NCBI RefSeq assembly: GCF_004010195.1
Contig: NC_057717.1
Coordinates: 104,506,003 to 104,570,002 of the forward strand
DNA: 64,000 nucleotides
Reading direction: 5' to 3'
Origin: Chiloscyllium plagiosum
Lineage: Eukaryota
Below are positions 9,350 through 53,900 of the stretch, piece after piece. Numbering within the stretch: the stretch's first letter is position 1; each line of letters begins with the position of its first letter. The notes under the pieces were generated by a model that saw only the letters and a program-made list of their open reading frames with translations, ran no database searches and was not told where the DNA came from. Position numbers and translations under genes: made by a program.

Positions 9350-9437
9350 GAGAGTGTGGTGCTGGAAAAGCACAGGACACAGCATCCAAGGAGTAAGAGA
9401 ATTGACGTTTCGGGCAAAAGCCCTTCTTCAGGAATGG
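9350..9437 (-). mobile_element. Short Penelope-derived insertion inside a tRNA-type SINE (about 9160-9510)
   Basis: 12-bp target-site duplication ttcactaatgtc at 9338-9349 and 9438-9449; same family as the 34185-34392 palindrome. Confidence 0.75.
9400..9436 (-). ncRNA. Minimal type I hammerhead ribozyme motif
   Basis: Minus strand reads CUGAAGA-A-GGGC-UUUU-GCCC-GAAAC-GUC; core intact, helix I weak. Confidence 0.6.
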
Positions 9438-9902
9438 TTCACTAATGTCCTTGCTTGGCCTACATGTGACTCTAGACCCATAGCAATGTGGTTGGCTTTG
9501 GGATGGCCAATAAACACTAGACCAACCAGCCATGCCCTAATCAACTTGTTCGGAAATGTTATGACACACCTCTGGGGCAGACTGGACTCAAACCCAAGCC
9601 TCCAAGGTTAGAGGCAGGAACACTACAACCATATTCAATGACTTACATCTGAATGGAGTTCAGGTGAGACCAGGACAGTGGTAACTATAACAAGAACTGC
9701 AGTCCAATATGATGCATGATTAGGGATAGGAAAATGGAACGGTACTTTGAGAAACAAGCTTCTTTAAAAACAATGCAGTTTAATTATAAATAAAACTTGC
9801 ATATCTAATCTTACACTTTACATTTGGATCCTGCAACCACACTCAGGATGGCTTGTTACCTCTCAAGAGTTCAATGTTAACAAAACTGCATCTCTCTGAA
9901 GC

Positions 9903-50900: not shown

Positions 50901-53900
50901 GAAGTGGTGTCCTTCCTGATCTGTATGAGCTGAAAATGTGTTGCTGGAAAAGCGCAGCAGGTCAGGCAGCATCCTTTTTCAGGAAAGGGCTCATGCCCGA
51001 AACGTCGATTATCCTGCTCCTTGGATGCTGCCTGACCTGCTGCGCTTTTCCAGCAACACATTTTCAGCTCTGATCTCCAGCATCTGCAGTCCTCACGTTT
51101 TCCTTATCTGTATGGAAGGATACTACTGAGAGAGGGTCATGTAGTTTTGTGAGAGAAAAAAAGATCAGGAAATGACATCACCCCAGGAAATAATATCACC
51201 AACCCAAAGAAACCCAAACATATAAATTGAAAGCAGGAGTTTTGAGAAGAATTTTAGCTGAGGTTGAGGTTTTGGATGTAGGTTTGCTCGCTGAGCTGAA
51301 AGGTTCTTTTCCAGACGTTTCATTACCTTACTCGGTAACATCTTCAGTGGACTTTATGCAAATCAATGCTGAAACTTCCTGCTTTCTATTTATATGTTTG
51401 GGTTTCTTTGGGTTGGTGATGTCATTTCCTTCGGTGATGTTATTTCCTGTGTTTTATTCCATCAGTTCATATATGTTGCTTTAAATGCATTGTGCACTTA
51501 GGGACAGAGTCTTTAGTTATATTGTTTTATTATTTGAGCCTCTAGCCTTCTCTGTAGATTTGGTACTTGGCTCCTCATTACTAACTATGCAGAACCTGTT
51601 TCTCTATCCTACTTATGTCGTTGGTATCTACATGGAGAACAATGACAGCATCCTACCCTTCCCACTGCAAGTTCTTCACCAGAACTGAGTAGATGTTCCA
51701 AACCCTGGCACCAGGCAAGCAACACAACCATTTGAAGTTTCACTCCTTGCTGCAGAGAATAGTGTCAATCCCCCTCAACATAGCTTGCCCTACAACCATT
51801 ACAGTCCTTTTCCCTCCCCTCACATAAATGGATTCCTCTACCACAGTGCCATGTTGAGTTAGCTCAACTGCCCTGCAGCCCCAACCCACATCCAAACTTG
51901 GTGAAAGAATCACAAATTGTTGAACAATTCCAAAGGCTGAAACTCTTTCCTGGTGGTCCCCTTTGCTGCTCGGGTAGCAGTTTCACACACTCCTTTCCCT
52001 GACCACTTATCAAATCAGAAGACCCCATCCTAAGCGATGTGGTTGCCTCTTGGTACAACACATCCAGACAATTTCCCCCTCCCTGATGTGCCATAGTGTC
52101 TAGAACCTGGTCTCCAGCTCAATGACTGTCTGAGTCCAACTATGAATACTGACAAAGGAGCAGCGCTGTGAAAGCTTGTGATTTCAAATAAACCTGTTGG
52201 ACTATAACCCGGTGTCGTGTGACTTCTGACCTTGTTCACCCCAGTCCAACACCGACACCTCCACATCATTGCCATTGTGGTCCAATGTAAACATTGAGAA
52301 GTTCTCAAATGCTACAACCATGACATGTTGCCTGTCCTGACATCTTTAATGTGTTTTAGTTAGATCCTTAATTATTTCAATCAATTATTTATTTTACTTT
52401 TTAAAAGCATTAATGACTTTACTAACAGTTCCTAAACTATTTTAAACCATAAAAAGGAAATAAACCTTCACCACTTACCAGCTACTCACCAAACAGCTAA
52501 CTTCTTCCCTGGAAGTCTCCTGCTTGTTTACCTTGCAATCCAGCATCTGCATGTCTCTAACTTCTTCCCTGGGTCAGAGCAACAACCAATTCCTACAGGG
52601 TGAAACAGTAAGAAACAACAAAGGTTCACCACCTTCCCCTTCTCATTTAAATTTCCTTATTCACCCGACTCTCAGCACTTTGTTCAAAGTTTCACTGAGA
52701 TGTTTCTCTTTACGCACTCTGAGTTATCTCCGTTCTAGGGATAGAAAGCACAATTTAAGCTAATTGTCCAACGTAAACTGTTCTCCAGTGTATATTCCTG
52801 CTGAAGACTGGTTTAAATTTCAAATTTAAACAGTAAATTTCGGATAAATATTAAGGGTGAAATACAAACAAACCTGGCTGTTTAGAAAGATTCCCCTTGC
52901 TCTCTCAATTCCCAGCACACTGTTCACAGTCACACTCAGTGGGTCGTTGATAGTGTGAGTTGAAGGTGAGGGGCGGAGGAGGGACAGTGACTTGGAAATC
53001 TGCCTGTTTTCATGTTGAATGTTCTATATAATGTCTTCACCAGACTCGTTTCATTGTTTCTCTTGCCAGCAGTCGAGCGGGTCGATGCCCTGCCTGATCA
53101 CTTGACCACAGATGCCCGTTCAAGAGTGCGGATGAGGAGGGACCTGGCGGCCTTGCCAGCTGAGCTGATCACCCAGATTGGTAACCGATGTCACCCCAAG
53201 CTTTATGCAGAGGGGGACCCCACTGAAAAGCTGGAACTTGTTACAGGTACTGCCCACATTTCAAGGTTTCTTTCGTGTTTTCTTTCACTCATAGAACGTT
53301 GGTATTGCAGGCTAAACCATAACTGCCTTGAGAATGTGGTGGTGAGCTGCCTTCTTGAACCATAGCAGTCCTTCAAATGGACGTACACCGACAATGCTAT
53401 TGGGAAGGTCATTTGTAGGCTTTGGCCCAGTGACAATGAAGGAACAGCGATATAGTTCCAGGTCAGGGTGTAGCTGAACTTGTAGGCTGTTTCCATATAA
53501 TCTGCTGCCTTTGTCCTTCTAGGTGGTAGAGTTCACAGGTTTGGGAGGTTAGCGTGTACATTTTGTAGATGGGACACCCTGCTGCTACTGTGCATTGCTC
53601 ATGGAGGGAGTGAATGCTGAAGCTGGTGAATGTGGTGCCAGTCAAGTGAGCTGCTTTGTCCTGGATGGTGTCAAGTGTCTTGAGTGATGCTGGAGCTGCA
53701 CCCATCCAGGCGAGTCGGGAGTATTCCATCACACTCCTGACTTGTAGATGATGGACAGGCTTTGGGAAGTCATCTTTCACATTTTGTCAGGCCTCTCCAC
53801 TCCCTAGCTGTTCCACCCCTGACCGATGCTCCTGTTTGTGAATACCTCCTGAGTTTGATTTGTTATATTTTTACAGGAACTAGTGTCTTCATCACTCGAG

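Follow-up and report, generated by a model that had tools for sequence, protein, structure and literature searches.

We report that a 64,000-nucleotide stretch of the Chiloscyllium plagiosum genome (contig NC_057717.1, positions 104,506,003 to 104,570,002; hereafter the window, with positions counted from its first letter) carries seven cores of the minimal type I hammerhead ribozyme with all of their core letters in place, and that these, along with many broken relatives, very probably belong to the pseudo-long terminal repeats (pLTRs) of four lineages of Penelope-like elements (PLEs), here called C/C', A/D, B and E, which have been left in the DNA as 5'-truncated or fold-back stumps. The first-pass annotation of the window had read the motifs as minimal type I hammerheads carried by the Penelope-like elements of a shark, and it was right as to the kind: the motif fits the published consensus, and the exons of the host gene TRMT1 match Chiloscyllium plagiosum. 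All seven cores that it cited are present at their places and on their strands, each consisting of CTGA(A/T)GA, one extra base, helix II, GAAA, the palindrome ACGT or AGCT and then U-H.

A strict descriptor (zero core mismatches, helix II of at least 3 bp), run over both strands of the window, returns exactly these seven cores, and in 7/7 a self-complementary tetranucleotide occupies positions 15.1-16.1. The palindromic helix III previously claimed is thus borne out, with ACGT in six cores, AGCT in one and loop III absent. The extra base between A9 and 10.1 is likewise present throughout, and helix II is 3-7 bp long, its opening pair 10.1-11.1 being G-C in four cores and G-U in three. Could such matches arise by chance, or through faulty assembly? 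Loose descriptors do match often, namely 9-25 times per dinucleotide shuffle of the window if one mismatch is allowed, but the strict descriptor finds only 0-3 matches in each of 20 shuffles (20 in total), none of them palindromic. What is more, short-read contigs span two junctions of the composite insertion described below, and a related species has one of these junctions, at 49376, as well. We therefore regard the probability of chance or artefact as practically negligible.

The description of the cores as intact calls for some qualification. It holds for the core letters of all seven, but, helix I being what defines type I, it is true of the whole fold in four only, all of lineage C/C', in which helix I has at least 3 bp; at 9404, 31480 and 34303 it has 0-2 bp. 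The nine degenerate relatives that had been listed alongside are indeed all homologous, broken copies, with only the 5' half-core clearly kept in the pair at 40.1 and 40.5 kb, and self-comparison and profile searches reveal further broken copies beyond them. If the count is limited to independent arms, so that neither 51314 nor any copy within the duplication discussed below is included, the core is broken in 22 of 28 and intact in 6, and many of the breaks fall on the CpG pairs C11.1-G12 and C15.2-G16.2. To speak of ribozyme-bearing retroelements is therefore an overstatement, as the window copies are truncated stumps; moreover, a single same-strand pair of intact cores in the window (51314 and 49453) would be able to form a dimer in cis. 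The suggestion that the set is unannotated stands as regards Rfam, since no hammerhead family is present among the 11 matches of the window at E up to 1; several fold-backs score there as microRNA-like hairpins, under the gathering scores.

By self-comparison and profile searches, the copies fall into four lineages. C/C' comprises 21353 (C'), 45365, 49453 and 51314 plus broken copies, with C and C' at 70% over 137 nt. A/D includes the helix II types GGGC/GCCC and GGGTC/GACCC, and its two parts cross-match and have in common an ATG-started frame about 20 nt past the cut position. B carries GGAGC/GCTCC, most of its copies being preceded by TATAAA and followed by a hexamer that resembles a poly(A) signal, and E consists of two copies, both decayed. 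The four helix II types had been taken for as many sequence-distinct families; in fact, they come from three lineages, since GUC/GAC and GUUACC/GGUAAU both occur in C/C'. The consistent pairing of these different helices had also been said to amount to covariation, and this did not survive measurement. Namely, in the only homologous alignment possible, that of lineage C (8 rows, 10 pairs, 500 shuffles), 87.5% of the cells pair and one pair of ten, in helix I, has changed at both of its positions, being C-G in C and G-C in C', while the covariation score itself is reached by 45 of the 500 shuffles and is not significant; across the five measures used, 45-62 shuffles reach the observed value for four and 301 for the fifth. 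In their different helices II, unrelated families have converged in structure on a known motif, with no measured covariation signal. The copies are as follows, with helix I given in contiguous pairs.

9346..9434, minus strand: solo copy of lineage A; core 9404-9431, helix I broken (0 bp), 15-bp target-site duplication (1 mismatch), 5' end about 3 nt before C3
17696-17803 and 41673-41823: D-like fold-backs
21046..21463, plus strand: 5'-truncated Poseidon-type PLE (C'); endonuclease C-terminus running into core 21353-21386 (helix I 3 bp), then tail; in a TRMT1 intron, antisense
24466..24560, minus strand: lineage D copy, core broken
31478..31600, plus strand: lineage B copy; core 31480-31508 intact, helix I 1 bp, start at about C3; in a TRMT1 intron, antisense
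34198..34393, both strands: lineage A head-to-head fold-back with a 14-bp target-site duplication; plus arm with intact core 34303-34330 (helix I 2 bp), minus arm (34273-34300) with C3 lost at the inversion point and G at position 17
34837..35150: three decayed lineage D arms, at 34922 (minus), 35032 (minus) and 35051 (plus)
37312..37870, both strands: lineage B inverted pair; arms 83%, both cores broken, TATAAA 25-40 nt upstream of each core and ATTAAA after
40048..40530, both strands: lineage E inverted pair, both decayed
45287..46085, both strands: older lineage C inverted insertion; minus arm with intact core 45365-45398 (helix I 3 bp), plus arm with endonuclease end and a broken core near 46003; nested in the endonuclease remnant, a lineage A fold-back at 45570-45739 (12-bp duplication), one arm of which has an internal deletion taking out helix II to the cut site
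46460..46657, plus strand: lineage C copy, core broken
48827..48945, minus strand: decayed lineage B-type copy
49376..49708, minus strand: lineage C terminal repeat with intact core 49453-49486 (helix I 4 bp), end of the open reading frame (ORF) and short fold-back; left end of the composite
49709..51238: inverted copy of host DNA from 45428-46963, with its decayed C and A pieces
51237..51451, minus strand: lineage C terminal repeat; core 51314-51347 intact, helix I 4 bp
52149..52268, plus strand: lineage B copy, core broken
56879..57337, both strands: lineage D inverted pair; minus arm split by another repeat, cores broken
59455..59597, minus strand: lineage D copy, core broken
63326..63425, minus strand: lineage D copy, core broken

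A few side remarks belong to this list. The fold-back at 17696-17803 scores 51.8 bits against Rfam mir-216 (gathering score 53.5) and could pass for a microRNA. Upstream of the decayed B-type copy, at 48928-49140, there is a high-depth repeat with no recognisable ORF, which is probably more of the same element. Finally, lineage D copies (24.5, 35.1, 57.3, 59.5 and 63.4 kb) show a pyrimidine tract and CAG just before the position of the downstream-frame ATG; this tract, about 20 nt after the cut site, resembles a 3' splice site, and the ribozyme may lie in a retained intron.

The Penelope origin is best founded for C/C'. The frame 21046-21369 matches nine longer proteins, seven of them from Chiloscyllium or Hemiscyllium at 79-90%; among relatives at 85-87%, the best match (P0001) has RVT_1 (E 3e-6) and another (P0003) GIY-YIG (E 0.027), both under the Pfam curated cut-offs. 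The window fragment alone, which holds the endonuclease end only, gives no Pfam family match. What is more, the ORF runs into the ribozyme, ending in STDDVA at 21353 and in STEDVT at 49453, with its stop in loop II (21367-21369 for C'), and a C-terminal EDV(T/S) lies at the core in 4 of the 5 relative proteins retrieved. The additional base that follows A9 supplies the T of an ATG, at which a second frame opens and runs through the tail, so that the C/C' core is read in three ways, as an ORF end with its stop in loop II, as the ATG of the next frame and as an RNA fold; the cut position lies 28 nt from the A of that ATG. As for the ends of the copies, four public runs were aligned to 48760-50010, three of them DNA (X1, X5 and X12). 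Among the ends listed, family-wide loose 3' ends fall at 49412 in 172, 92 and 146 contigs of X1, X5 and X12, respectively, with AT-rich flanks, and in 22 RNA reads, and again at 49376 in 15 RNA reads. Lying at +69 and +105 from the ATG, respectively, 49412 and 49376 form a pair of 3' ends with a spacing of 36 nt, and such a pair is the tail signature described for PLEs. The endonuclease C-terminus, the relatives that bear a reverse transcriptase, the ATG in the core and the two 3' ends together secure the Penelope origin of C/C', whose Penelope/Poseidon clade is named here from anatomy rather than from a tree. For A/D, B and E, the claim stands by anatomy alone, with no coding partner found.

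That anatomy consists of head-to-head inverted pairs in A, B, D and E and of 12-15-bp target duplications in 3/3 A insertions tested, with none convincing for B or D; inverted pairs and target duplications of variable length have been described for PLEs (PMC3846280; here and below, statements on the cited papers refer to those parts of them that were available to us), and we infer the link of A/D, B and E to PLEs from this likeness. A DNA-transposon origin of the fold-backs, as miniature inverted-repeat transposable elements, was ruled out by the head-to-head arms and the 12-15-bp duplications. One can also argue that A/D, and perhaps B, are stand-alone, non-autonomous elements similar to short interspersed elements or retrozymes, which are transcribed from a start of their own just before the ribozyme and are moved in trans by PLE proteins. 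Namely, they are short, stereotyped units of 90-130 nt with 5' ends a few bases before C3, an end which the 15-bp target duplication fixes at 9404, and no ORF remnant adjoins any A/D copy in the window. Yet there are no head-to-tail arrays with cores (0/13 tandem-repeat rows overlap one), and A and D have their ATG-started frame past the cut site in common, as expected for the start of a PLE ORF. The same units would also result if the 5' end of the RNA of an autonomous element gave rise to short cDNAs, so that this proposal, which we hold to be unlikely, may be the same thing renamed.

How would such stumps arise? In the scheme that we favour, the element's protein would nick AT-rich DNA and prime reverse transcription 70-105 nt past the core ATG on uncleaved RNA, and the ribozyme would thus be copied whole. 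In the source element, going by the literature, the motif would cut only when two copies pair via the palindrome, probably aided by the element's protein: a loopless helix III cannot close in one copy, and two copies therefore pair through it (PMC4209133), cleavage of minimal hammerheads in vitro is weak (PMC4209133), and in Poseidon of Anolis cleavage needs the protein of the element (PMC11167929). The scattered copies would be inert, and their decay often strikes one of the two CpGs within the core. That the templates copied into DNA were uncleaved is suggested by the 5' ends of the copies, since a cleaved template would yield copies starting after position 17 and devoid of the core. The start is found a few bases before C3, rather than at the cut, in most of the A/D arms and in two of the five B copies, with one A copy (41.3 kb) starting near the cut position, while C, E and the three other B copies extend further upstream of the core. 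This agrees with Anolis, where unprocessed RNA is the main substrate of Poseidon (PMC11167929). RNA ends do not pile up at the cut site in the one poly(A) single-cell run of which about 2% was read (263 reads, 2 of them at a level of at least 99%), but such a library is poorly suited to the purpose and the negative is a weak one. In the same data, 20 RNA reads with poly(T) before 48849 (minus strand), 29 nt after the cut position of the B-type copy, suggest that B-type repeats supply a poly(A) site there.

Several observations weigh against the reading put forward here. In 7/7 cores, a one-core hammerhead dimer reaches -7 to -19 kcal/mol, as compared with -20 to -31 kcal/mol for the best dimer fold; the hammerhead dimer not being the lowest-energy state, help or co-transcriptional folding would be needed. 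The 5' ends of the copies were judged by eye from alignments. A/D, B and E have no ORF partner with reverse transcriptase and endonuclease in the window; exact A and B DNA patterns gave 0 loci among metagenome and viral contigs, where shark DNA is not expected, and a peptide search with the shared A/D frame gave a single match (E 1e-4), to an unrelated repetitive protein. Finally, intact cores are unevenly distributed between the strands of introns, as discussed next, which sits uneasily with inert copies.

All six intact cores inside genes are antisense to their host, if 34303 is counted on a putative untranslated intron. Counted by independent arm, with the 3 arms outside genes excluded, intronic arms are intact in 5 of 13 antisense and 0 of 12 sense cases (Fisher p 0.024 one-sided, 0.039 two-sided); on a shorter, earlier list of arms, the figures were 5/10 and 0/8 (p 0.029). 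Does this mean that the dispersed copies are active, such that cores in pre-mRNA pair in cis or in trans and cut, and selection removes intact cores from the sense strand of introns? Apart from these counts, the abundance of the family speaks for it, as contig depth, when summed over the C repeat, amounts to 5e4-1e5 times the single-copy depth (a figure that is not a copy number). On the other side, the test is post hoc and small, and two arms that belong to the same fold-back do not count as independent; in the broken sense arm at 34300, C3 was lost through the geometry of the inversion; lineage D has decayed on both strands; between 32 and 44 kb, the limits of the genes are inferred; signals for poly(A) addition and splicing within the repeats could bias the strand without any cleavage; and RNA ends did not pile up at the cut site, in what was a weak test. 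We consider active dispersed copies rather improbable, and treat the strand bias as a lead only. A literature search on strand bias of ribozymes in introns gave no relevant publication among the matches listed. A bolder version, for which we see quite a slim chance, holds that PLE hammerheads cut RNA in shark cells, that selection strips sense-strand intronic cores and that the unit between 51314 and 49453 is a newborn, two-ribozyme, retrozyme-like element. If it were true, tens of thousands of copies would serve as a readout, on the scale of a population, of an activity that has yet to be demonstrated in vivo.

At the other extreme, the C/C' core might be kept mainly by protein coding, owing to the overlap of ORF end and ORF start, with the ribozyme being vestigial. 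Both reading frames do pass through the C/C' core, and in Anolis, ribozyme mutants were without effect on insertion in vitro and ends at the cut site were absent from RNA-seq (PMC11167929). That said, this ATG is missing from A/D, B and E, which have retained the same core with other helices, helix I has changed from C-G to G-C between C and C', and the ribozyme of Anolis does cleave in the presence of its protein (PMC11167929). Maintenance mainly by coding appears quite doubtful to us.

The unit at 49376-51451 is a composite. Two C repeats, 96.7% identical (7 differences in 215; 49376-49590 and 51237-51451), flank an ORF end, a short fold-back and the inverted host copy, a 1.53-kb segment which is 98.2% identical to 45428-46963 (27 mismatches in 1505), that is, to a donor which lies in the same intron at a distance of 2.7 kb. 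The cores at 51314 and 49453, both intact, stand 1,861 nt apart, in a unit that holds 1.5 kb of captured intron. The two repeats have in common letters which are rare in the family, and a 9-bp near-duplication (8/9) flanks the whole composite, which could be chance in T-rich DNA. Bridging data cover the left-hand junctions, 49376 and 49709: contigs of X1, possibly the assembly's own sample, bridge both; X12, from another, related species, bridges 49376 with 20 differences in 365; and X5 is too patchy over unique DNA to judge. At 49709, X12 has a single contig at single-copy depth, with the donor letters at the 3 visible diagnostic sites, which runs on for 175 nt into unlike sequence. We lean slightly toward the following account: a solo repeat already in place received a second hit in this lineage, synthesis that extended from this repeat jumped to intron DNA or RNA close by as its template, and the earlier repeat became doubled. 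A single event at first insertion, followed by homogenisation of the repeats, is disfavoured, as X12 has the junction at 49376 and at 49709 only a donor-type contig, although a gap in contigs is no proof. A duplication made purely by DNA repair is a rival to both. Capture of host DNA between pLTRs (PMC3846280) and long duplications linked to retroelements (PMC9977147) have each been published.

The host genes around these copies are as follows.

7736-7843, plus strand: last coding exon of MAN2B1
9906..32182, minus strand: coding span of TRMT1, by exon-protein match
44123..58560, plus strand: BTB-domain gene with a large intron at about 44956-53068

The TRMT1 exons are 100% identical to the Chiloscyllium plagiosum protein in 9 of 15 aligned pieces. 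Splice-site letters alone place a putative 5' untranslated exon of this gene near 35383-35590. The BTB-domain gene we take to be NACC1, from its sequence and its synteny with TRMT1. The core at 9404 is on the same strand as TRMT1, with the stop of that gene about 500 nt upstream and an ATTAAA, at 9784, about 350 nt upstream, and likely sits in the termination zone between the convergent MAN2B1 and TRMT1. Unrelated to the hammerheads are minisatellites at 1-284 and 27800-28054, with units of 33 and 43 bp. A reverse-transcriptase fragment at 16463-17230 (RVT_1, 30 bits) comes from another retroelement, presumably a CR1-type long interspersed element.

The class of motif is already known, and the addition made here is one of host group only. 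No published description of these motifs in sharks was found in the literature, as far as its available text goes, though a 2026 preprint reports tandem retrozymes in one chondrichthyan genome (bioRxiv 10.64898/2026.07.22.740005), and the available part of supplement file 2 of PMC4209133 has no shark, skate or chimaera row. The value of the system lies in numbers: many copies allow cheap tests of cutting in vivo, through intronic strand bias and through cDNA 5' ends relative to the cut site. For shark annotation, it matters that Rfam misses these motifs while their fold-backs score as microRNA-like hairpins.

The closest match is with the minimal hammerheads of metazoan PLEs (Cervera & de la Peña 2014, PMC4209133), with which our cores share CUGANGA and the extra base, the palindromic 15.2-16.2, the absent loop III, the short helix I (of 3 bp or more in the C/C' cores only) and G10.1-C11.1, here G-U by decay in three C copies. 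As there, several families occur in one genome, mostly as solo copies or opposite-strand pairs, and are tied to truncated PLEs; the C' motif at 21353 is close to the Clonorchis rows of its Fig. S3. As for density, the seven strict cores in 64 kb stand beside about 4,000 per genome in coelacanth and 9,000 in Xenopus, figures from different descriptors, with one window being no genome estimate. In Poseidon of Anolis (PAc; Frangieh et al. 2024, PMC11167929), the ORF likewise starts at helix II, with the cut 26 nt on, as compared with 28 here; two internal starts of reverse transcription giving the tail, AT-rich targets and the lack of RNA-seq ends at the cut are also alike, while the main start lies at +111-118 from the ATG, as against +69 and +105 here. 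PAc was assayed in vitro, whereas the present copies, truncated and mostly decayed, are known from sequence. Animal non-LTR retrozymes (PMC7229834) similarly carry type I hammerheads within non-coding, PLE-derived repeats, but form head-to-tail tandem arrays, and no tandem repeat in the window overlaps a core. Finally, PLEs of Adineta vaga (Arkhipova et al. 2013, PMC3846280) enclose 0.9-1.5 kb of host sequence between pLTRs, just as the composite does, and also show inverted pLTRs, tails and 8-10-bp target duplications; what sets the shark composite apart is that its donor lies only 2.7 kb off, in the same intron, and that the captured copy is inverted.

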